Assembly: GCA_003978465.1 (NCBI GenBank)
Contig: QNZS01000073.1
Coordinates: 1-10,004 of the forward strand
From: Sulfurimonas sp.
Lineage (GTDB): Bacteria; Campylobacterota; Campylobacteria; Campylobacterales; Sulfurimonadaceae
Length of the DNA stretch: 10,004 nucleotides
Direction of reading: 5' to 3'
Within the stretch, counting starts at the first letter, position 1. Every line of letters starts with the position of its first letter. A program made the translations under genes and the position numbers. Of the stretch, positions 1 through 10,004 are shown piece by piece. The notes under the pieces were generated by a model, which did no database searches, was not told the origin of the DNA, and saw nothing but the letters and a program-made list of their open reading frames with translations.

Positions 1-306
1 GAAGATCTCGGAGCCTCTCAGTTTAGAATACTATGGGAAATTGACTTACCTCTGGCTTCTCCGGGGATTGTTGTTGGTTCTCTTCTCAGTTTTGTCCTAG
101 CTGCTGGTGCTTTAGCTGAATCTAAATTGTTAGGTGGACAGGCTATTATTGTTTTTGCAGACGAGGTAGAAACAGCATTTACATATGGCCAGAACTGGCC
201 ACTTGGTTCAGCCCTAGCAATGATATTAATTCTGATTATAGGAATTCTTGCATTTTTCTCGATTACTAAGATAGATTTAGATACAATGATGGGGAGAAGA
301 CATTAA
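1..306 (+). CDS. ABC transporter permease, 3' partial (PotB-like, spermidine/putrescine-family inner membrane component)
   Basis: Frame 1 is open from base 1 to TAA at 304-306. Translation EDLGASQFRILWEIDLPLASPGIVVGSLLSF... carries the EAA-loop signature of ABC importer permeases (E-x-LGAS...F..I.LP...PGI) followed by a hydrophobic C-terminal TM segment. The stop overlaps the next permease start (TAATG). Confidence 0.8.
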   Translation, partial: EDLGASQFRILWEIDLPLASPGIVVGSLLSFVLAAGALAESKLLGGQAIIVFADEVETAFTYGQNWPLGSALAMILILIIGILAFFSITKIDLDTMMGRRH

Positions 307-1100
307 TGAGATCATCACGAAAAACCGTGTACTTTCTTCATGCATATGGAGTATTGGCTATTTTCTTTCTTTATTTACCACTTGTTTCCGTTTTTTACGC
401 TTCTATCTCAAAAACGAGATATTTATCCTTTCCAATACGGAGGTACGCGACACATTGGTATTTGAAGGCATTAGAAAGTCCTACAGTCTCAAATTTGGTC
501 GAAACATCGCTGAAAATAGCTATAATTGTCACAGTCATTTCTATGCTAGTTGGTTTCTTTGGGGCCTTAGCATACGCAAGATATCACTGGAAGTATAGAA
601 ACGTATTTCAAAAAATCATTATTTTGCCAATTTTTTTTCCACAAGCAGTGCTTGGTCTGGCGTTGTTGATTTGGTTTAACTCCATTGGATTAATACCTTC
701 TTGGAAAACTGCTGTTGTGGCTCATCTTGTATGGATTGCACCCATTTCAACATTAATAATCGCTATCCGTGCATATAGCTTTGATCCTGCACTTGAGGAA
801 GCGGCCAGAGATATGGGAGCAACTACTTGGACAATTATGCGTGAAATTACAGTACCCTTGCTAATGCCTGGAGTCATATCTGCTGGATTATTCTCTTTTC
901 TTCTAAGTTGGGGGAATTTCCCATTATCTTTATTTACTACTGGTGCAGACTCTACACTACCTGAATGGCTTTATGCGAAAATGGTTTCGGGTTATTCGCC
1001 TTTAGTTCCATCTGTGGGAATTATTTCTATCAGTGCCTCAGTTATTCTGATAATCATTGCATATACTGTAACTAAATTAGTAGCATCAGTTAGTAAGTGA
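306..1100 (+). CDS. ABC transporter permease (PotC-like, polyamine/amino-compound importer family)
   Basis: 264 aa, about six hydrophobic segments, EAA motif EEAARDMGATTWTIMREITVPLLMPGV. Translationally coupled to the upstream permease. Confidence 0.85.
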   Translation: MRSSRKTVYFLHAYGVLAIFFLYLPLVSVFYASISKTRYLSFPIRRYATHWYLKALESPTVSNLVETSLKIAIIVTVISMLVGFFGALAYARYHWKYRNVFQKIIILPIFFPQAVLGLALLIWFNSIGLIPSWKTAVVAHLVWIAPISTLIIAIRAYSFDPALEEAARDMGATTWTIMREITVPLLMPGVISAGLFSFLLSWGNFPLSLFTTGADSTLPEWLYAKMVSGYSPLVPSVGIISISASVILIIIAYTVTKLVASVSK

Positions 1101-1135
1101 CTAATGACAAATTTGCTTATAAAAACTAAAAACTC

Positions 1136-1141
1136 AAGGAG
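1136..1141 (+). promoter_or_regulatory. Shine-Dalgarno (AAGGAG) for the SDR gene
   Basis: AAGGAG 5 nt upstream of ATG at 1147. Confidence 0.6.
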
Positions 1142-1146
1142 AAAAA

Positions 1147-1926
1147 ATGTTTACTAGCATCAAGGGGCGTTCTGTTATCGTTACAGGTGCATCCAAAGGT
1201 ATAGGAAGGGGAATTGCCAATGTATTTGCTTTGCAAGGTGCAAAGGTGATGGTGGTGGCCCGTGGAGAGGAGGAGGCAAAAGCAACTGTTGATGAAATCC
1301 GTTCAAAGAAAGGGATTGCGGAAATGCAGTTGTGCGATGTGACAGATTGGGAAGCGGTGGAGGAAATGGTGACAGCAACTGAATCGGAGTTTGGAAGTGT
1401 TGATATACTTTGCGCAAATGCGGGGATATTCCCTCAAACTAAAATATTTGAAATGGATCCAGAGGAGTGGGACCAAGTTATGAAAACTAATCTGAAAAGT
1501 GCTTTTTTGTGTGTAAAAGCCTGTATTCCGCAATTTAAAAAGAAAAGAAATGGGCGGATTATTCTAACTTCATCTATAACTGGGCCCGTAACTGCTTACC
1601 CAGGCTGGTCTCATTACGGAGCTTCCAAATCGGGACAACTGGGATTCATGAAGACCGCAGCGATGGAACTCTCGAAGTATGGTACTACTATAAATGCTGT
1701 ATTGCCTGGTAATATTTTCACAGAAGGATTACAGGATTTAGGACAAGATTATTTAGATTCCATGGCGGCTACAATTCCTCTAAAACGTCTTGGTGTGGTT
1801 GAAGATATTGGTAACGCAGCATTATTTTTTGCTTCTGATGAAGCCTCCTACATCACAGGTCAGACTTTGATAGTAGATGGCGGACAAATTCTTCCTGAAT
1901 CTCTGGAAGCAATTGAAGAAATATAA
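1147..1926 (+). CDS. short-chain dehydrogenase/reductase (classical SDR); candidate amino-alcohol/aminoketone dehydrogenase
   Basis: N-terminal Rossmann motif TGASKGIGRGIA (TGxxxGxG), NAG motif (CANAGI), catalytic S (TSSITG) and YxxxK (YGASKSG), C-terminal IVDGG. About 13-aa extension beyond the usual SDR end. Confidence 0.85.
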   Translation: MFTSIKGRSVIVTGASKGIGRGIANVFALQGAKVMVVARGEEEAKATVDEIRSKKGIAEMQLCDVTDWEAVEEMVTATESEFGSVDILCANAGIFPQTKIFEMDPEEWDQVMKTNLKSAFLCVKACIPQFKKKRNGRIILTSSITGPVTAYPGWSHYGASKSGQLGFMKTAAMELSKYGTTINAVLPGNIFTEGLQDLGQDYLDSMAATIPLKRLGVVEDIGNAALFFASDEASYITGQTLIVDGGQILPESLEAIEEI

Positions 1927-1944
1927 CAAAAATGGAGAAATATT

Positions 1945-2949
1945 ATGGTTGATAGTCAGCAATCTCATTTCATGCTGATAGATCATCTTGGTGAATTAGC
2001 TAATTCTTCACTTAAATTGTGGGAGGTCCCCGGTGAAGCTTCAGCAAAATTGATCAATTTCTCAGAAAATGCAACATATCTTGTTTCGTCGTCTAAAGGT
2101 TACCGGTCTATTCTAAGAATTCATCGTGAAAATTACCACACTAAGCCTGCAATAGCATCAGAAATAGCTTGGACTCGTGCTTTGAACAAAGAAAGTGAAG
2201 TTGAAACGCCAAACATCATTCCGGGGAGAGATAATCAAGATATTCAACAAGGCAAAGTTGATGGTTTGAAAAACAACCGTTACATGGTTATGTTCGAGTA
2301 TGTTGAAGGAGAAGAACCCAATGAAGAACAGGATCTCGTTGGACCATTTGAAGAACTAGGTGAAATTAGTGCTAAAACCCACATACATTCCATTGGCTGG
2401 AATCGACCAAATTACTTTGAAAGGCTTGAATGGAACATAGATGCTTTTTTTGGTTCAAAGCCAATTTGGGGCAAATGGCAAGATGCACCAGCAATGGAAA
2501 AACCTGTTTTAAAATTGCTAATTCAGCAGGAAGATCTTATTGTTAAGCGTATAAAAAAATTTGGAAGGGGATGTGGAAAGTTCGGTCTTATTCATGCTGA
2601 TATGAGACTAGCAAATCTATTGATTCATGAAGGTAAAACTCGCCTTATTGATTTTGACGATTGCGGAATAGGCTGGTTCTTATATGACTTCGCTGCTGGG
2701 ATCAGTTTTATGGAAGATAATCCAACAGTTGAAACACTAAAAGATGCTTGGGTGAGGGGATATAGAAATGTTAGTTCTCTTTCGAATGAAGAAGAAAAAG
2801 AAATAGATACTTTCATCATGCTCCGTAGAATGGCGCTATTGGCATGGATTGGTTCTCATTCAGATACTGATTTGGCCAAAGAACAAGGGCCTGAATTTAC
2901 GAAAGTCTCAGGAGAACTTGCTGAAAAATTCATGATAAAAATGGGGTAA
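1945..2949 (+). CDS. APH/choline-kinase-fold phosphotransferase; candidate amino-alcohol kinase (1-amino-2-propanol or ethanolamine kinase)
   Basis: Brenner motif LIHADMRLANLLI (HxDxxxxN) and Mg-binding IDFDDCGIG (D-F-D), typical of PF01636 kinases. N-terminal ...NATYLV...ILRIHRE nucleotide-lobe pattern. GGAGA RBS 6 nt upstream. Confidence 0.75.
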   Translation: MVDSQQSHFMLIDHLGELANSSLKLWEVPGEASAKLINFSENATYLVSSSKGYRSILRIHRENYHTKPAIASEIAWTRALNKESEVETPNIIPGRDNQDIQQGKVDGLKNNRYMVMFEYVEGEEPNEEQDLVGPFEELGEISAKTHIHSIGWNRPNYFERLEWNIDAFFGSKPIWGKWQDAPAMEKPVLKLLIQQEDLIVKRIKKFGRGCGKFGLIHADMRLANLLIHEGKTRLIDFDDCGIGWFLYDFAAGISFMEDNPTVETLKDAWVRGYRNVSSLSNEEEKEIDTFIMLRRMALLAWIGSHSDTDLAKEQGPEFTKVSGELAEKFMIKMG

Positions 2950-3019
2950 CTCCTTGATGTTAAAATTAGTAACGCTATCAATTCTAATCAGTATTAATAT
3001 TAAGGTTTAACCTCAAAAA

Positions 3020-3634
3020 CTATTTATTTTTAATCAAATCATCAATAGCACTTTGAGCAATGACCATATCTTCCTTTCTTCCAGACATAAAAACTCTTCC
3101 GGAAGCACCAATCATTTGTACATCATTGATTATAGCTTGCGGTGCAGCTCTTTCAGCCTCATTGGCTGCTTTGCAAGCAAACAAAGCTGGAGTCATTTCA
3201 CAAACGAGTAATGATGATCCAGAGATCAACATTGAAGCTGATCTTGTCCGATTTAAAATAATAGAATGTTGATCTGATATATTTTCAATAATATCACGGT
3301 ACAATATCTTTGGAAGTAGTTGATCAGAAGGTTTTGCACTGATACCATCCAGAATGGCTTTCCCAGCAGACTCCAGTTCAGCTTCAATGCTTGAGTGGAG
3401 TTCCAGCAATCCAAACTGACGTTCAGTAAACAAAATTCCTGGTTCCATGTCAGGTGAGGCTTTAAGTGCCAAATCTACTATTCTATGGATTGATAATGCT
3501 GGTGCAACTTCAACAATTAAACTATGTTCACCAGCATAAACTGGATATCCTCTTGCACGAGTTGGACTACTTAAGTAAGCAGCAAACTGTGGTTGTAAGT
3601 CCAAGATTGGTAAATAGACCCTCAGTTCAGTCAT
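3020..3634 (-). CDS. tandem BMC-domain shell protein (BMC-T), possibly permuted EutL/PduB-like
   Basis: 204 aa with two consecutive segments following the BMC-domain pattern (beta-strand / A-rich helix ...ALKAS..., ...ACKAANEAERA... / G-rich hairpin / A-rich helix). N-terminal LPILDLQPQF resembles the EutL N-terminus. Paralogue of ORF 4763..5371. Confidence 0.55.
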   Translation of the reverse strand: MTELRVYLPILDLQPQFAAYLSSPTRARGYPVYAGEHSLIVEVAPALSIHRIVDLALKASPDMEPGILFTERQFGLLELHSSIEAELESAGKAILDGISAKPSDQLLPKILYRDIIENISDQHSIILNRTRSASMLISGSSLLVCEMTPALFACKAANEAERAAPQAIINDVQMIGASGRVFMSGRKEDMVIAQSAIDDLIKNK

Positions 3635-3687
3635 TAATATTTATTCTTGTATATTTTATTCAAAAATAATTGAGCATAATCTTATTG

Positions 3688-3969
3688 TTATTTCCCGTCA
3701 AGAGAGAAGTATTTCCCTAGGTCGGTATGGGGCCGTGGTATCACATGAACAGAAATGAGTTCTCCTACTTCATTAGCAGTTTCTGCTCCTGCTTCAGTTG
3801 CTGCCTTTACAGCGCCAACATCACCTTTTATGATAACTGATACAAGGCCATCACCAACCTCTTCCCTTCCAGCAATGGTTACATTAGCTGCTTTAACCAT
3901 TGCATCCGCAGCAGCAAGTGATGCGACATAACCTTTTGTTTCAATCATTCCTATAGCTTGATTGGACAT
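3688..3969 (-). CDS. BMC-H hexameric shell protein (PduA/EutM/CcmK family)
   Basis: 93 aa. [26 protein letters not shown]...[13 protein letters not shown]...VHVIPRPH is the canonical PF00936 signature. Confidence 0.92.
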
Positions 3970-3976
3970 GAGACTT

Positions 3977-3982
3977 TCTCCT
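3977..3982 (-). promoter_or_regulatory. Shine-Dalgarno (AGGAGA on minus strand) for the BMC-H gene
   Basis: Plus-strand TCTCCT, 7 nt upstream (in the mRNA) of the BMC-H ATG (3967-3969). Confidence 0.6.
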
Positions 3983-4069
3983 ATTTGTGTTTTGGCTTTT
4001 AGGCCAGTTTGCGCCGCTATTGTTTGCTAACGGCAATGGATCGATTTGAAGAAGTTTTTGCCATTTACA

Positions 4070-4312
4070 TTACTCCTTCTCATCAATAGAACCAATGATT
4101 AGAGAATCAATTGGTGCCTTGAATTCTGTAAAATAACCGGCTGCAACAGAACCTTGAGTTAACAATACCGCTTCTCCTACGGCACATCCTAACGGGTCGT
4201 AAGCAATAATATTTTCACCGCTTTCAACTTCTACTTCCAAATACCCTCCCTTGGGAAGCTTATCAACATGTTTAGATGACCAAATTTGGCCTTTTACCCT
4301 TCCTCTGATCAT
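4070..4312 (-). CDS. BMC vertex protein (BMC-P pentamer, EutN/PduN/CcmL family)
   Basis: 80 aa. MIRGRVKGQIWSSKH...GEAVLLTQGSVAAG matches the PF03319 size and pattern (N-terminal IxGxVxG). 4-nt overlap with the upstream gene. Confidence 0.85.
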   Translation of the reverse strand: MIRGRVKGQIWSSKHVDKLPKGGYLEVEVESGENIIAYDPLGCAVGEAVLLTQGSVAAGYFTEFKAPIDSLIIGSIDEKE

Positions 4313-4755
4313 ATTTGTGTCCTTTCCATTTTTATCCCCTTTTTACGTAACTCATCTTTTGCCAAAGGGGTTAATTTAGCATTTTTTAAAACCTGCAAAA
4401 CAGTAATATTTTCATCCAATTTTGCTATATCATATTCTGTAATCAAACCATCTTCTATTTTGTTTGAAGTAGGATGAGAAGTACAAGATCTACTATTTAA
4501 ATTAGCAGATGATGGCACATCTAAATGAAAAATAATATCCCCATTTTCAATGTTTGAAAATCCATCAGTTTCTCTTACAATATTCAATATTTTTTTAACA
4601 AATTTCATTAGATCTTCATCCGTTCTGATAGAGACTATTACTTCTCTAGTAGTTTTCTGATCCAACGAAACTGACTCCTTGTTGATTGAAGCTATCTCTT
4701 CTACCAACAATTCACGTATTATTTTTCTAATTTCTTTCCCCACAGTTGGCCTCAT
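4309..4755 (-). CDS. hypothetical 148-aa protein with N-terminal amphipathic helix (encapsulation-peptide-like); BMC-associated protein of unknown function
   Basis: Embedded between shell genes and coupled to the vertex gene. N-terminal GKEIRKIIRELLVEEIASI has i/i+3/i+4 hydrophobic periodicity. No catalytic motif recognised by eye. C-terminal ...LKNAKLTPLAKDELRKKGI. Confidence 0.5.
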   Translation of the reverse strand: MRPTVGKEIRKIIRELLVEEIASINKESVSLDQKTTREVIVSIRTDEDLMKFVKKILNIVRETDGFSNIENGDIIFHLDVPSSANLNSRSCTSHPTSNKIEDGLITEYDIAKLDENITVLQVLKNAKLTPLAKDELRKKGIKMERTQI

Positions 4756-4762
4756 CTATTGT

Positions 4763-5371
4763 TCATTGTTTTCGTAAGGCCAACTCAGCAGCTTCACGCG
4801 CGTTACGTATCTCAGCTTCGCTACCAGACAGGTAAAGTCGACCATTTGCACCAATCATACGATAGTCAATTATTTTTATATTAGCTTTTTTTTCTGCTTC
4901 ATTGCAGGCTAAAATTGCGTAGGATGCTGGTTGGCATTCCAATAGATAAAGAGACTCCCCTCCTAAAATCATCGAACCTAACTTATTTCGATTAATTAAA
5001 TAAGCATGTTGGTTTTCGACTCGCGTAACTATCTTTGAAGCAAGAATAGTTGCTGGCTTAGCATCTTTGGGAGTCGCTCCTAAACTTTTCAATACTGCTT
5101 CTGCACTTGCTTTGACTTCTGCTGTAGAATCGGCATGAAACTCTAGATACCCAAATTGACGTTCTACAACCAAAATGCCAGCCTTAACATTTGCGCCTTT
5201 CAAAGCAACATCTGTTAAAGCCTCAATGTCTAAACCAGGTGCAATTTCAATGATCTGAGACGCCATATTTTTACGAGGCAATGAGCCTCTCATCCAAGTT
5301 GCAATATAAGCCAAAGTTTGAGGTTGCAACTGATCAATGAATATAAAAGAACGTAATTCAGCCATGTACAC
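4763..5371 (-). CDS. tandem BMC-domain shell protein (BMC-T), paralogue of 3020..3634
   Basis: 202 aa. Two BMC-like segments (SQIIEIAPGLDIEALTDVALKGANVKA...; ...AILACNEAEKKANIKIIDYRMIGANGRLYLSGSEAEIRNA). Shares the N-terminal ELR...D(Q)LQPQ..AY motif with the other BMC-T. Confidence 0.55.
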   Translation of the reverse strand: MYMAELRSFIFIDQLQPQTLAYIATWMRGSLPRKNMASQIIEIAPGLDIEALTDVALKGANVKAGILVVERQFGYLEFHADSTAEVKASAEAVLKSLGATPKDAKPATILASKIVTRVENQHAYLINRNKLGSMILGGESLYLLECQPASYAILACNEAEKKANIKIIDYRMIGANGRLYLSGSEAEIRNAREAAELALRKQ

Positions 5372-5374
5372 AAA

Positions 5375-6952
5375 TCATTTTTTCAGAACATTCTTAAGCT
5401 CTTCCGCAATCAATTTACGGAGTTCTTCTCTGTTCACATTATCAATTGAGAAACTGGTGCTTGTCGAGGTTGTATCCACTCGACGAGACTTTGGTGAACC
5501 TGGTACTCCATCTGATGGAGACCTTGGCAATGGACCGTCTAATGATAAAGACAGTTCATTAAATTTACCAAAAGCTACAGACGGATCTGAATTATAAGCA
5601 ATTTGTGTCCAATGAATTAGATGTTGTGGACCAAGATTTTCACCAAGTGAACTCCTCCCATAAAATCCAGTACCTATGGTAAATGATGGAGCCAGATTGG
5701 TGTTAAACCCTGATGCCCCTAAACTACAAGAGGCATTTACTACTACTCGATAACATTCGACTCTTGATGCAAAATCAAGAATCATTCTCTCGTTTTGACT
5801 ATGTATGACAGCCGAATGACCAGCACCCGTTGCTCTAAGCGTAGCCCTTGACTGAGCGATTGCTTGTTTGGGACTGTTTGCAACATAAAAAGACAGTACA
5901 GGGCAAAGTTTTTCTCTAGCTAACGGTTCTTCAATACCGATACTGTTAATTGGTGTTACAAGGATTAGTGTTTTTTTGGGAACCCGGATGCCGCATTCAC
6001 GTGCAATCCAAACTGCATCACGGCCTAAAGCCTCAACGTTAAAGCCATTGGGGTGAAAAAGATAATTGCGTATTTGTACTACCTCATTATTATTGCAAAT
6101 ATAGGCTCCTTCATTTTTCAAACTTTTGCGAAGGGGTTTGTCAACATCCGTCAAAGTGATGAGGTTAGATTCACTGGTACAAAGTACGGAATTGTCAAAA
6201 CTTTTAGATGTCACAATTTGATTTGCTGCCAATGCAATATCTGCCGATGAATCAACGAATACAGGCGCATTACCTGGACCAACTCCTATGGCCGGATTAG
6301 AAGAAGAATAAGCTGCACGAACCATTGCTGTACCACCAGTTGCCAGGATCACGTTCGTTTTTGGTGATGACATGAATTCTTCTATCAACGGAATAGACGG
6401 GGTTTCTAATACTTGTATTGCCCCCTCAGGCGCTCCAGAAGAAATTGCAGCCTCTGTCAAAATTCGAACTGCATCTATACATGATTTCTTTGCTGCTGGA
6501 TGTGGGCTAATAACAATTGAGTTTCGTGTAATTAGTGCAAGAATAATTTTAAAATTCAGTGTTGAAATAGGATTTGTCGATGGAATCAAAGCAAATATTA
6601 CTCCCGCAGGTCTTGGGATTTCTACAATTTTCTTTTCTTCTTTAACACGCATCGAAACAAGGTCTTGCTCTCTATAATAATCTACTAATGGTTTTGCTGT
6701 GAACTCATTTTTCAGCTTCTTGTGTGAAACTACCCCAAAACCTGTCTCAACAACAACTTGTTCGGCCCATTCCCCCGCATGACTATGGGCAACGTTGGCT
6801 ACGGCATCAACAATTTTCATTGTTCTTTTTTTATCGAATCTCTGAAATATATATGATGCCCACCGCGCTCGCTCTAAAACTATGTCAGCACGCCCCGATA
6901 AAGATGCTTGAGATTCTGAGATATCAACTAGAGTTCTGATTTGTGGTTCCAT
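5375..6952 (-). CDS. CoA-acylating aldehyde dehydrogenase (PduP/EutE-like) with C-terminal extension: P/S/T-rich linker plus amphipathic helix
   Basis: 525 aa. ALDH-fold blocks (IVISPHPAAKKS..., ATGGTAMVRAAY..., active-site context FDNSVLCTSESNLI, ...GTGFYGRSSLGEN). The last ~55 aa are GPLPRSPSDGVPGSPKSRRVDTTSTSTS...NREELRKLIAEELKNVLKK. The start codon overlaps the upstream stop (TGATG). Confidence 0.85.
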   Translation of the reverse strand: MEPQIRTLVDISESQASLSGRADIVLERARWASYIFQRFDKKRTMKIVDAVANVAHSHAGEWAEQVVVETGFGVVSHKKLKNEFTAKPLVDYYREQDLVSMRVKEEKKIVEIPRPAGVIFALIPSTNPISTLNFKIILALITRNSIVISPHPAAKKSCIDAVRILTEAAISSGAPEGAIQVLETPSIPLIEEFMSSPKTNVILATGGTAMVRAAYSSSNPAIGVGPGNAPVFVDSSADIALAANQIVTSKSFDNSVLCTSESNLITLTDVDKPLRKSLKNEGAYICNNNEVVQIRNYLFHPNGFNVEALGRDAVWIARECGIRVPKKTLILVTPINSIGIEEPLAREKLCPVLSFYVANSPKQAIAQSRATLRATGAGHSAVIHSQNERMILDFASRVECYRVVVNASCSLGASGFNTNLAPSFTIGTGFYGRSSLGENLGPQHLIHWTQIAYNSDPSVAFGKFNELSLSLDGPLPRSPSDGVPGSPKSRRVDTTSTSTSFSIDNVNREELRKLIAEELKNVLKK

Positions 6953-8229
6953 CAGTGTATACTCCTCCGGTTTCTGACCCCAAGGACTTCCTCTCGTGCT
7001 TGTTCAATTCCTATTTGCACCCTTCCTAAAAGTTCCTCACACTCCGACTGTGTCATTAACAAACCTGGTTTGAACTGAAGCACACTTGGGTCAAGTGCTG
7101 AAAAAATTGCCCAAACACCGTTTTCATAAAGATATTTCATAACCGGTTTTGCACCTTGTTCATGACTGAACTCTAAACCCATAATGAGACCGTGTTGACG
7201 AATACCTATAAAGAAATCCGAATACTCTTCCATAATTTCATCCAAACCTGATCGAATATAATCAGAAATAAAATGAACTACAGACCGAACTTCTGGACGT
7301 TGGACGATTTCAAGAGTTTTCATTGCTACCACACATCCAAGCTCTGCCCCACCCATCGTTGACATATGACCAAAACCATCTTCTTTTAACCAGCCACTAC
7401 ATTTTTCTGAAATTAAGACACAGGCAATTGGGTACATACCTCCAGAAATTCCTTTGCCGGTAACCATAATGTCAGGCTGGACTTTATACTTAGTACATCC
7501 CCAAAGTTCTCCTGTACGCATTAGACCTGTTTGAACTTCATCAGCTATATATAAGGTGTCGTATCGTTCACAAAGTTGTTTGACTGATGGAAGGTATCCT
7601 TCCTCTGGCATTGGGAAACCATATGTTGCTGGGATAGTTTCCATAATTACTGCAGCCACGTCTCGTCTTTTTAGAGCATCTTCCATTGTGTTGAGATCAT
7701 TGAACGGAACTTGGACAAATTCACCAACAGTATCTTCCGATAAAAATAATTTGGAAAAACGGTCATCTCCAGTTTTAACAGCCAGTCCTGTGTGACCATG
7801 ATAAGCTTTGATTATTGACACAATTTTTCTTCTCTGTGTGGCGTGACGTGCAGTTTTAAGCGCAATATCAACAGCTTCTCCGCCCCCTGAACCATATGCT
7901 GTATATCTCAACTCCGGACCAGGTGCACTCTCAGCCAAAGCCTCTGCTAAGGCAGTCCGTGCAAGTGCCGGAAAATGATGATTACCCATATCAAAGCGAG
8001 AAGTCCCAGCTTTTAGTACCTCAACCAACTCTGGATGTCGGTGCCCCAAATTATAGGTTCCTCCATTTAGATGGACATCAATCAAACGCCGACCATCCAT
8101 ATCATGAAGATAATATTTCTCTCGATGATCGATCACAAGATCAATCCCCATATCTTGCCAATCTTGTGTTTTTCCAGGATTCCAGAACGTTTTAGAACGT
8201 TCTAGAAAATCAATTTTTTCTTGACTCAT
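6952..8229 (-). CDS. class-III aminotransferase-fold PLP-dependent enzyme; candidate amino-alcohol O-phosphate phospho-lyase (or omega-transaminase)
   Basis: 425 aa. YGSGGGEAVDIALKTAR (PLP phosphate pocket), DEVQTGLMRTGELWG (class-III DEVQTGxGRTG block), candidate Schiff-base Lys in DIMVTGKGISGG. Confidence 0.8.
   Translation of the reverse strand: MSQEKIDFLERSKTFWNPGKTQDWQDMGIDLVIDHREKYYLHDMDGRRLIDVHLNGGTYNLGHRHPELVEVLKAGTSRFDMGNHHFPALARTALAEALAESAPGPELRYTAYGSGGGEAVDIALKTARHATQRRKIVSIIKAYHGHTGLAVKTGDDRFSKLFLSEDTVGEFVQVPFNDLNTMEDALKRRDVAAVIMETIPATYGFPMPEEGYLPSVKQLCERYDTLYIADEVQTGLMRTGELWGCTKYKVQPDIMVTGKGISGGMYPIACVLISEKCSGWLKEDGFGHMSTMGGAELGCVVAMKTLEIVQRPEVRSVVHFISDYIRSGLDEIMEEYSDFFIGIRQHGLIMGLEFSHEQGAKPVMKYLYENGVWAIFSALDPSVLQFKPGLLMTQSECEELLGRVQIGIEQAREEVLGVRNRRSIH
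6962..6968 (-). promoter_or_regulatory. Shine-Dalgarno (GGAGGAG) for the aldehyde dehydrogenase, inside the 3' end of the upstream gene
   Basis: Plus-strand CTCCTCC 9 nt upstream (mRNA sense) of the ATG at 6950-6952. Supports translational coupling. Confidence 0.6.
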
Positions 8230-8288
8230 TCTCTTTCATAGACAAGATGTGATTTAAGACGCAGGTCAAAGAGTTTTTCTAGCATCGA

Positions 8289-8302
8289 TAGTATTAATAC
8301 TA
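8289..8302. repeat. 14-bp perfect palindrome TAGTATTAATACTA in the operon upstream region (candidate operator)
   Basis: Self-complementary sequence about 60 bp upstream of the first operon gene. Overlaps the candidate -10. Confidence 0.4.
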
Positions 8303-8325
8303 AACATTGGGTATATTCCATTCAA
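8297..8325 (-). promoter_or_regulatory. candidate sigma70-type promoter of the minus-strand metabolosome operon (-35 TTGAAT, 17-nt spacer, -10 TAGTAT)
   Basis: Read on the minus strand: TTGAAT (plus 8320-8325), 17 nt, TAGTAT (plus 8297-8302), about 65 nt upstream of the ATG at 8229. Overlaps a 14-bp palindrome. Identified by eye only. Confidence 0.3.
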
Positions 8326-8384
8326 ATAACTATGTAAATAAGGTTGATAAAGGAAAATAATTTTTTTAAGAATCATATTGCGAC

Positions 8385-9614
8385 CTATGTATTTTGAATA
8401 GTTTTAACATAGTTTGCCCACCACACCATCATTTTTCTTCTTTCTTTTAGATACTTGTTTCTATTGTATCTATGTATTTTATTCAGTTCCGTGCATGCAA
8501 GTTGTTCCTCTATAACATTATGATACCAGAGACCGCTTTCACTCAATACCTCAGAAGCAAGAGTTCTGAGACCATTGATAGTGTTTCTTCCCGCGTATCC
8601 TAATCGATTTGAAAAATATAACAGTGTGTTTTCACTCATTGCTTTTTGTGAGTTACGGACTTGAGTAAATACATATCCATTCTTGCCGGAATATTCTTGC
8701 ATTTCTTTTAAGATACAAACTGCTTGAGAAGAAAGAGGAACATAATGTTCGCCTCTCATTTTCATTCTTGTTGATGGAATCACCCAAAGGGGTTCAGCAC
8801 AATCAATATCAAACTCACTCCAATCAGCAAAACGTAATTCTGAAGATCGAACGAAGGTTAATATAAGAAAGTTCATTGCAAGCACTGTAGATAGGTTTGT
8901 TACTTTGTCAGCTTTCATTCTTGAAAGAAATTCTGGAAGTTCTGAGATTGGAATTGAACTATGTGATTTTGGTTCCGGTTTTACAAAGGTCTTGTTTAGT
9001 CCTTTTGCTGGGTTGTTTATGCAAAGTTCATTAGTTTTTGCGTAGTTAAAAATTGATTCAAGTCTTTGCCGAATTCTATAACAGGTTTCGTGCTTCCCTA
9101 CGACTTCCAGTTTTTTTAACATTGAAATTACATCCTGTTTGTTGATCTTTACAATGGGTATTTCACCAAGATATGGAAAAACGTGGATGATAAGAGAATT
9201 GAATACAACCTTTGAATATTCCTTTGTCCATAAAGTTTCTTGTCTAACGTGCCATTCTTGGGCAACTTGTTGAAAAGTAAACCCTTTAATTTCTTCACGG
9301 CGTTTCTTTTTATCATAATTTTCTATATGCAAGCTACTCCTAAATCTTTTTTCATCAAGTGGATTGATCCCCTCCTTTATTTTTTTGTTTGCTTCATAAC
9401 GCCTAGATCTTGCTTCGGGCAATTTAACGTTTGGCCATTTCCCAAAAGATAATACTTTCTGTTTCCCTTCAAACCAAAATTGTAATTGCCAGTATTTTTT
9501 CCCATCAGGGTAAATCCTTAGGTACATGCCATCACCATCTGTCAATTTGTATTGTTTTTCTTTTGGTTTTGCCCGTTTAATTGCTAGCTCAGTAAGTTTA
9601 TTTGTACGATTCAT
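8385..9614 (-). CDS. int: tyrosine site-specific integrase, P4-like with DUF4102-type N-terminal arm-binding domain
   Basis: 409 aa. The N-terminus LTELAIKRAKPKEKQYKLTDGDGMYLRIYPDGKKYWQLQFWFEGKQKVLSFG is the typical P4-family integrase N-domain. The C-terminus carries box I R (LTFVRSSELRFADWSEFD), K (RMKMRGEHYVPLS), box II N-G-L-R, ...QLACTELNKIHRYNRNKYLKERRKMMVWWANY with the catalytic Tyr in HRYNR. Confidence 0.88.
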   Translation of the reverse strand: MNRTNKLTELAIKRAKPKEKQYKLTDGDGMYLRIYPDGKKYWQLQFWFEGKQKVLSFGKWPNVKLPEARSRRYEANKKIKEGINPLDEKRFRSSLHIENYDKKKRREEIKGFTFQQVAQEWHVRQETLWTKEYSKVVFNSLIIHVFPYLGEIPIVKINKQDVISMLKKLEVVGKHETCYRIRQRLESIFNYAKTNELCINNPAKGLNKTFVKPEPKSHSSIPISELPEFLSRMKADKVTNLSTVLAMNFLILTFVRSSELRFADWSEFDIDCAEPLWVIPSTRMKMRGEHYVPLSSQAVCILKEMQEYSGKNGYVFTQVRNSQKAMSENTLLYFSNRLGYAGRNTINGLRTLASEVLSESGLWYHNVIEEQLACTELNKIHRYNRNKYLKERRKMMVWWANYVKTIQNT

Positions 9615-9662
9615 GAAAAATTAATTATGTTGTATGTGTAAATTACCACTAAACTTTAATAG
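9468..9662. repeat. direct repeat copy A (~195 bp; int codons 1-49 plus ~48 bp upstream)
   Basis: Identical to 9810..10004 except for one mismatch (about 9563 vs 9905, K-to-I in the fragment). Coordinates read by eye, +/-1. Confidence 0.85.
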
Positions 9663-9809
9663 TTTACCACCATTATATAATACTAATTAACTATATATAT
9701 ATAATAAATATATCATATAGTTACAATGGATTATATATTGACCAAATGAGAAAAATTATATCTTATATCCTTTTTAAGGGAAACGAACCCGCGTTTAAAA
9801 TGATGCAAA
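9663..9809. other. AT-rich 147-bp spacer between repeat copies, containing a (TA)n tract
   Basis: ...actatatatatataataaatatatcatatag... with very low GC. No ORF. The sequence diverges from int immediately at the repeat boundary. Confidence 0.5.
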
Positions 9810-9957
9810 CTTCAAACCAAAATTGTAATTGCCAGTATTTTTTCCCATCAGGGTAAATCCTTAGGTACATGCCATCACCATCTGTCAATTTGTATTGTTT
9901 TTCTATTGGTTTTGCCCGTTTAATTGCTAGCTCAGTAAGTTTATTTGTACGATTCAT
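9763..9957 (-). pseudogene. truncated integrase 5' fragment (first 49 codons of the int N-domain, then out-of-context tail)
   Basis: MNRTNKLTELAIKRAKPIEKQYKLTDGDGMYLRIYPDGKKYWQLQFWFE is identical to the int N-terminus except K18I. It then reads into the AT-rich spacer (VCIILNAGSFPLKRI*). Confidence 0.75.
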
Positions 9958-10004
9958 GAAAAATTAATTATGTTGTATGTGTAAATTACCACTAAACTTT
10001 AATA
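9810..10004. repeat. direct repeat copy B (runs to the window edge; may extend further)
   Basis: See copy A. Truncated by the window end, so the true repeat length is unknown. Confidence 0.85.

Follow-up and report, generated by a model that had tools for sequence, protein, structure and literature searches.

A tandem duplication at the 5' end of a P4-family integrase gene beside an RMM2/AAUM2 microcompartment locus, with an old tRNA-Arg integration as the tentatively favoured history

The window considered here is a whole stretch of 10,004 nucleotides (nt) from a Sulfurimonas sp. assembly (GenBank GCA_003978465.1, contig QNZS01000073.1, positions 1 to 10,004), in which the gene for an integrase, here called int*, stands directly upstream of an operon for an amino-alcohol bacterial microcompartment (BMC) of the RMM2/AAUM2 type. 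BMC loci count as self-contained modules passed on by horizontal transfer, and their physical links to mobility genes are rarely documented; the window locus is probably one of the few such links that have been cited, with adjacency as the sole ground for the citation. A preliminary description of the window reported a P4-type integrase whose stop lies 155 nt from the start of the BMC operon, a repeat of about 195 base pairs (bp) with a single mismatch that covers int codons 1-49 and creates a truncated int, a (TA)n-containing spacer between the copies, a second copy cut by the window end, and no tRNA in the window. All of this was borne out. The same description took the direct repeats for attL/attR or tandem-island junctions (att, attachment site) and the BMC locus for the body of an island with int at its edge, and it is these readings that the present analysis revises. 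The features at the integrase end of the window are as follows.

8385..9614, minus strand: int*, a P4-family tyrosine integrase of 409 amino acids (aa), with Pfam PF13356, PF22022 and PF00589
8574..8576, minus strand: codon N347 at the His-II position of HxxR (TINGLR vs. T-x-HGFR), from alignments including P4
8493..8495, minus strand: codon C374 at the His-III position (QLAC vs. QLAH), with a one-residue deletion after it, just before Tyr383 (8466-8468)
9467..9809, minus strand: proximal unit of the duplication (c2), 343 bp, made up of 149 nt of upstream region, a 47-nt 5' leader and int codons 1-49, delimited by blastn of contig L003 against itself and against single-copy contigs
9810..10004, minus strand: distal unit (c1), cut by the window end, with 148 nt more in longer contigs
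9763..9957, minus strand: truncated open reading frame (ORF) of 64 aa, 49 residues of the arm-binding domain followed by 15 unrelated ones, a partial PF13356 match over 52 of 83 profile positions
9643-9650 and 9664-9671, minus strand: RGTGGTAA motifs, 29-57 nt ahead of the int start; the duplicate holds a third at 9986-9993

The material for comparison was located by exact-protein look-up of the integrase, which occurs in over 200 data blocks from public metagenome assemblies, most of them marine. This material consists throughout of metagenome contigs that break near the repeat, and a copy number above two is possible. Look-ups of the int variants P0012 and P0006 led again to contigs breaking about 300 nt upstream of int. 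Within the window the repeat occupies 9467-9661 and 9810-10004, 195 nt that span int codons 1-49 and 47 nt of upstream DNA, at a start-to-start distance of 343 nt; the preliminary description, correct as to the repeat itself, had given about 48 nt and 342 bp. A repeat of this length cannot be due to chance. The sole mismatch between the copies, T/A at 9562/9905, corresponds to K18I in the truncated copy, and the 148-nt spacer (9662-9809) contains the (TA)n run at about 9692-9703. The spacer takes part in the duplication, as the longer contig L003 makes plain, in which positions 428-770 equal 771-1113 and form two complete 343-bp units that directly abut. The structure is a tandem duplication, head to tail, of a 343-bp unit that holds the int upstream region with its probable arm motifs and promoter, and the first 49 codons. 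It has the features of a simple tandem duplication, with nothing between the copies, an allelic single-copy form and a unique junction. That junction, ...GGTTTGAAG|TTTGCATCATT... at window 9809/9810, shows 1 nt of microhomology, was not seen elsewhere, and is identical in a sister lineage in which the int DNA diverges by about 3%. Among the scorable contigs about 18 are duplicated and nine single-copy (L001, L002, L012, L025, L026, L101, L102, L110 and L113), the latter keeping int and the whole BMC locus, and each lineage has both alleles. The longer contigs contain the 195-nt segment no more than twice.

The duplication is old, because the copies in the sister lineage differ at 15 sites. In L023 all 15 lie in the first 172 nt of the unit while the int-proximal 171 nt are identical, and this half of the unit has apparently been partly homogenised by gene conversion. 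It is hardly credible that the duplication is an artefact of short-read metagenome assembly, even though the copies are identical in most SPAdes and MEGAHIT contigs, just as a loop in a de Bruijn graph would make them, and contigs tend to end near the repeat. Identical copies in such contigs do not count as independent evidence for the duplication, since the loop would yield the same result; independent support comes from the contigs with distinguishable copies, namely L022 (several differences), L023, L107-L109 and L112 (15 differences), and the window, which like L006 differs by one base. An artefact would have to contend with an end-to-start junction that must be present in the reads, and with distinguishable copies assembled through in many independent samples.

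These facts bear directly on the proposal that an active P4-type island with BMC cargo has its attL/attR-type or tandem-island junctions in the two copies. In its favour, the P4-type Int points into the BMC locus, arm-type-like motifs lie upstream of it, and in the sister lineage a tRNA-Arg is found further upstream. The copies themselves abut and enclose nothing, however, half of the repeat is int coding sequence without any tRNA-like core, and the single-copy alleles retain int and BMC. A far-end repeat was not detected by a search whose positive control succeeded (contig L115, below), nor was there an AlpA or excisionase gene. We regard this proposal as very improbable, and the att reading of the repeat is refuted because the repeat is a local tandem duplication, the outcome that the preliminary description had itself named as fatal to it; the tandem arrangement is confirmed, but the third copy that was to accompany it is lacking.

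The left edge of the unit (9809/9810) lies 196 nt upstream of the int start, compared with 152-171 nt for the core of P4 and about 207 nt for the end of the tRNA in canonical relatives. This approximate agreement with the expected position of a P4-type core is noted here as a coincidence, with an aberrant Int-mediated exchange as a conceivable origin of the duplication. A T-arm-like stretch, CGCGGGTTCGTTTCC (window about 9779-9793, just inside the unit), was considered as a decayed tRNA or att core and left unproven. It matches the T-arm of tmRNA best, at 14 of 15 positions (Smith-Waterman with shuffles, p about 0.008 before correction for five tests), and is out of register with the tRNA position of the canonical relatives; Rfam gave no tRNA match in the unit at E<=10.

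Int* itself is placed in the P4 family by its sequence. It has the Arm-DNA-bind_3 (PF13356/DUF4102, E=2e-22), Phage_int_M (PF22022) and Phage_integrase (PF00589) domains, is 35% identical to the Int of phage P4 over 99% of its length (E=7e-92), and matches 3JU0 and 3JTZ, N-terminal domains of CP4-like integrases, in the PDB. Of particular interest is its active site. The catalytic residues R256 (Arg-I), K285 (Lys-beta), R350 (Arg-II) and Y383 are present and both His are replaced, leaving the full signature incomplete. Asn and Cys occupy the two positions in 19 of 19 cluster representatives of the window's own lineage, whereas His stands at both in P4 Int, in 12 sampled homologues of 60-64% identity and in the more distant homologues aligned; a pattern search at His-II likewise found N in all 19 own-lineage representatives and H in every matched relative of 60-64% identity. 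In Cre, His-II can be spared to some extent, with moderate activity left in H289N and weak activity when a small residue fills the His/Trp-III position (PMC2943603). By this analogy the int* enzyme is non-canonical and probably weakened rather than dead.

The gene has nevertheless been kept. Its ORF is intact in 30 of 30 full-length copies representing 14 haplotypes, and its ratio of nonsynonymous to synonymous polymorphism (pN/pS) is 0.30 (p=2.6e-5 against neutrality), as compared with 0.22-0.37 for the neighbouring enzymes, estimates which at 1-3% divergence are noisy and which indicate purifying selection. An integrase that lacks both conserved His and is selectively kept is a small, testable curiosity for recombinase biochemistry. 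It also raises the thought that int* has been domesticated, whether as a DNA-binding protein or regulator acting on the BMC operon or as a recombinase resident at the tRNA-Arg site. Selection like that on metabolic genes, the 30 intact ORFs and the lineage-specific fixation of the active-site changes would all be expected of a repurposed protein, as would a gene that is co-oriented with the operon, lies 155 nt upstream of it with no terminator-like site between, and has kept its arm-type motifs. The four essential catalytic residues are intact, though, the selection estimates carry the noise already mentioned, the terminator scan was one for a simple consensus, and a recombinase of the ordinary kind with reduced activity accounts for the conservation just as well; domestication appears improbable to us. 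A fuller version, in which selection fixed the non-canonical site, int* is a regulator co-transcribed with the BMC operon or a recombinase serving int-less tRNA-Arg elements, and the duplication tunes expression or acts as a decoy array, is to be entertained with much the same doubt. The scan in question, over 8000-10004, gave no promoter or terminator beyond shuffled expectation, and the spacer between int and the operon had neither a terminator-like site nor an excess of promoters by simple consensus search.

The RGTGGTAA motif has four matches in the window against 0.46 expected, a number reached in none of 200 shuffles. The motifs are aligned in position with triple TTGGTGGTAAA repeats found upstream of the intact relatives, the (TA)n run standing in place of the first of the three repeats, and the layout corresponds to that of P4, where TTGGGGGCAT arm doublets are annotated immediately before int. 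By sequence and by this analogy they are probably arm-type Int-binding sites.

The remainder of the window is taken up by the BMC locus, whose features are these.

3020..8229, minus strand: RMM2/AAUM2 microcompartment operon of seven genes (Pfam and NCBIfam), in the order class-III aminotransferase, acylating aldehyde dehydrogenase, BMC-T(dp), a 148-aa protein of no assigned function, BMC-P (EutN), BMC-H and BMC-T(dp)
306..2949, plus strand: ATP-binding cassette (ABC) permease, short-chain dehydrogenase (SDR) and APH-family kinase, convergent with the shell operon and part of the BMC locus
8230..8384, minus strand: int-aminotransferase spacer of 155 nt, also one breakpoint of a lineage-specific inversion
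2950-3019 and 8230-8384: the two inversion breakpoints

The gene set of the RMM2/AAUM2 type, as defined in PMC4207490 and in Sutter 2021 (PMC8217296, with supplement), is all present: aminotransferase, aldehyde dehydrogenase, SDR, phosphotransferase, one BMC-H, one BMC-P and two BMC-T(dp). The aminotransferase starts at 8229, 155 nt past the int stop at 8385, and an exact-protein look-up of it gave no record. In about 4 of 31 contigs (L006, L026, L103 and L111) the equivalent of this gene (window 6952-8229) is split or gapped, for example into 197+244 aa in L006 and 305+93 aa in L111, a result either of misassembly or of the gene having become a pseudogene in some of the population. The 148-aa ORF (4309-4755, between BMC-T and EutN) is the least constrained gene of the operon, with a pN/pS of 0.63 and the lowest GC content (0.31); it occurs in 144- and 148-aa variants, with an indel variant in the sister lineage, and belongs to no Pfam family.

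A scan with the aminotransferase yielded about 70 related RMM2/AAUM2 loci of 72-84% identity. These are collinear, with the genes for the substrate-binding protein (SBP), ATPase, two permeases, SDR, kinase, aminotransferase, aldehyde dehydrogenase and shell proteins, and none of them has an integrase within up to 10 kb; int is confined to the window's lineage. There, the block from the aminotransferase to BMC-T is inverted so as to be convergent with the kinase gene, and int lies at one of the breakpoints. No inverted repeats were found at the two breakpoints. Int and the block show the same gap in identity to their nearest relatives, from 95% down to 64% for int and from 99% to 81% for the SBP. 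In L106 an insertion sequence (IS) at 2772-3845, its DDE_Tnp_1 transposase split into 86 aa and 189 aa, has the SBP gene on one side and the ATPase gene on the other; it is also found in L022-L024, L104, L105 and L135-L144, that is, in every own-lineage contig that reaches the site, and parts the SBP from the transporter operon.

Homologous recombination has evidently been at work in the locus. From about 250 to 2200 the window (second permease, SDR and the first 85 or so codons of the APH kinase) shares only 86-91% identity with the majority of the lineage's other contigs, as against 98-100% from 2200 to 9660 and again 95-99% to the left of the patch. This mosaic patch of about 2 kb, with its right breakpoint inside the APH kinase gene, points to a divergent allele imported by homologous recombination. 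A recent transfer of int and BMC together had been suggested by the jump in synonymous divergence (dS) from 0.01-0.07 in the genes from int to BMC-T to 0.32-0.49 in the SDR and permease genes; it was rejected, the divergence being that of the bounded patch, which with 95-99% identity on both sides speaks for ordinary homologous recombination.

Whether int* and the BMC locus ever formed an island is best judged from the tRNA genes and from the limits of the block they make up. No tRNA lies within 2.8-3.2 kb upstream of int in the contigs of the window's lineage, and the search beyond the window was rewarded in the sister lineage, whose int is 96% identical to that of the window. Here four independent contigs carry, all on the same strand, tRNA-His(GTG), tRNA-Arg(TCG), 125 nt, a 5'-truncated orf173, the duplication, int and the BMC operon, and in L023 and L107-L109 the tRNA-Arg(TCG) is 0.9-1.2 kb upstream of int. 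Beyond orf173 the region varies among contigs of the window's lineage, and neither orf173 nor its 118-aa neighbour belongs to a Pfam or PHROG family.

In L112 the match to the sister lineage begins at position 30 of the tRNA-Arg, in the anticodon stem, as a 47-48-nt 3' fragment that follows 5.8 kb of foreign cargo (1-5850) with MmeI/Eco57I-type methylase fragments, a MORN-repeat protein and an internal 280-nt duplication. The fragment is the attR of a different tRNA-Arg(TCG) island, and int* and BMC lie outside it; it is thus the DNA beyond int, as seen from the BMC genes, that is demonstrably polymorphic at tRNA-Arg.

In the more than 50 contigs examined, int and BMC always occurred together; no empty site came to light, and both flanks of the int-BMC-ABC block of about 15 kb differ between contigs. 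Ten contigs with a 97-98% identical DUF3750 block had no BMC locus beside that block. Next to int* there was no excisionase/AlpA gene or replication module, the aminotransferase being the next gene. L126 (PhzF-PhyH-DUF3750) was tried as the empty site of L002 (PhyH ... int) and rejected, the PhyH genes having no DNA similarity.

Several contig ends resembled island boundaries. The end of L106 was considered as attR of an int*-BMC island and rejected, its core being Lys rather than Arg and its repeat motif different, and the tRNA-Lys fragment lying past a block that BMC-less contigs also have. Its positions 1-104, about 5.8 kb left of window position 1, begin with a 3' fragment of tRNA-Lys(TTT) (1-37, cut by the contig end) and replace the start of a gene resembling that for dimethylsulfoniopropionate (DMSP) lyase that is present in ten other contigs; only about 100 nt are island-end-like, and this looks like the stump of another island end. 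The 18-mer ACTGATATTATTATCCTT precedes both the tRNA-Lys fragment of L106 and the tRNA-Arg fragment of L112. A 32-nt block, AAAAAATCACTACACGCACGCACGAGGGCAAA, occurs at 176-207 of L106, in the region downstream of DUF3750, and at about 17885-17916 of L115, at the right end of its tRNA-Ser island, followed in each by a tandem doublet of a short motif (TTGTGCCA or TTGGTGGTAA); the AAAAAATCACTACACGCACGCACGAGGGCAAA block and TTGTGCCA doublet of L106 belong to a DUF3750-DMSP-lyase intergenic region common to the ten BMC-less contigs. A repeat at 179-273 of L107 was likewise rejected as a boundary marker, since it is a dispersed element resembling repetitive extragenic palindromes (REP). This intergenic REP-like repeat of about 50-95 nt is found in L107 (179-273), L102, L115 (four times), L118 and L123-L132, often at contig ends and synteny breaks, and ties the contigs with canonical tRNA-Ser islands to the same or related genomes.

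The reading that we favour, with moderate confidence, is that int* and the BMC/ABC block of about 15 kb are the anchored remnant of an old P4-like integration at tRNA-Arg, and that the repeat is a tandem duplication without an att role. A P4-like integration, or the accretion of islands, downstream of tRNA-Arg would have left int* and, plausibly, the RMM2/AAUM2-ABC block as its cargo; the att partner and accessory genes would then have been lost, an internal inversion would have occurred, and the block would have become fixed in a marine lineage, with newer islands inserting between the tRNA and int*. One illegitimate event at the int 5' end, either replication slippage or unequal exchange, would have made the duplication, which unequal crossing-over may remove and gene conversion may homogenise in its int-proximal half. 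Of the earlier idea of an island with int at its edge and BMC as its body, the sister-lineage tRNA pair, the absence of int from the 70 or so related loci, the low GC content at third codon positions (GC3) and the variable flanks speak for it; the missing far-end att, AlpA and replication module, the ragged ends and the invariant linkage do not. The idea is partly supported, as history and not as current mobility.

Several points weigh against the remnant reading as well. The GC3 values, 0.286 for the block, 0.285 for int*, 0.283 for island cargo and 0.415 (range 0.359-0.472) for housekeeping genes, involve a housekeeping baseline drawn from contigs tied to the organism by the shared REP-like repeat only, which is not a genome average. 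The lack of a tRNA in the window and in the nearest upstream DNA of its lineage is a second, and the tRNA-adjacent form, with its 5'-truncated orf173, looks like a derived deletion. No 3' repeat of tRNA-Arg was found in any own-lineage locus from the tRNA to about 6 kb past the window's left edge, where a partner repeat and far island end had been anticipated, and the same search did recover the 16-nt attR of the tRNA-Ser island in L115, 11.1 kb from its tRNA. At the far side the block ends raggedly, its junctions lying 447, 532 and 559 nt upstream of the SBP start and leading into unrelated DNA. Finally, by the Cre analogy, Asn at His-II may leave moderate activity, and "anchored" is not to be equated with proven inactive.

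Much the same observations could be accommodated if int* were the stump of an unrelated, decayed island that the inversion set beside the aminotransferase gene, the BMC/ABC genes having arrived or persisted by other means, for example homologous recombination. The position of int* exactly at an inversion breakpoint, the ragged boundaries, the activity of homologous recombination in the locus (the patch of about 2 kb) and the fact that relatives spread the locus without integrases are in keeping with such a history, the chief rival to the remnant reading, which we consider unlikely but by no means negligible. What it leaves unexplained is that int* and the block share their GC3 and the identity gap to relatives and were never apart in the more than 50 contigs, although these are weak discriminators. 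The mobility link between int and BMC is historical at best, int* having a non-canonical active site and neither att sites nor partner genes, and being fixed beside the BMC locus in a cosmopolitan marine lineage. The case also carries a caution of general use: direct repeats at the 5' end of an integrase gene need not be att sites.

Among known systems, phage P4 is the natural point of reference. Int* resembles it in three-domain architecture, in 35% full-length identity and in the tandem short repeats directly upstream of int, which in the annotated attP of P4 follow the order arm doublet, core, arm doublet, int. It differs in having Asn and Cys for His-II and His-III, one residue deleted before the Tyr and a tandemly duplicated upstream region, and its locus has no identifiable core, partner arm, or P4-type replication or regulatory genes. 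At 60-64% identity, the closest intact homologues of int* are the integrases of canonical islands in L115-L122, arranged as tRNA-Ser(GCT) or tmRNA, about 207 nt, int, AlpA, an AAA_25/DUF5906 primase-like gene, cargo and attR. These share with the window a homologous int-proximal upstream region, TTGGTGGTAAA repeats included, and the same GC3, and the contigs have the REP-like repeat in common. Unlike the window, they have a His/His active site, an excisionase-type AlpA, a replication module and a detectable att repeat; the "cargo" of the window is a complete metabolic locus.

The tandem accretion of islands at a tRNA hot-spot is an established concept, and the tRNA-Arg locus fits it in that some contigs have a complete tRNA-Arg and L112 a 3' fragment behind foreign cargo, with the older, island-like int*-BMC downstream. 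It departs from it in that no tRNA fragment is left directly upstream of int*, the T-arm-like stretch not being significant.

The closest published parallel is that of Sutter et al. 2021 (PMC8217296), who reported a phage integrase beside an RMM2/AAUM2 locus in a "Candidatus Marinimicrobia" genome; the BMC type is the same as in the window, and the adjoining integrase has the same Pfam pair, PF13356 + PF00589. Three metagenome-assembled genomes (MAGs) carry the window's locus at 97% identity or more: L011, L012 and L013, two of them labelled Gammaproteobacteria and one Candidatus Neomarinimicrobiota (UBA8229). L013, from that Marinimicrobia-labelled bin, is 98.8-99.6% identical to the window, and the locus of Sutter et al. 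is probably this one; the int-BMC adjacency is apparently already in print. With two of the three MAGs assigned to Gammaproteobacteria, faulty binning may lie behind the Marinimicrobia "phylum outlier" published for RMM2. To that report the present analysis adds the altered active site and the missing att sites in the window's lineage, and the two Gammaproteobacteria bins. Its new details are the polymorphism of the duplication, the lineage-specific loss of both His under apparent purifying selection, and a tRNA-Arg hot-spot that holds a second island.

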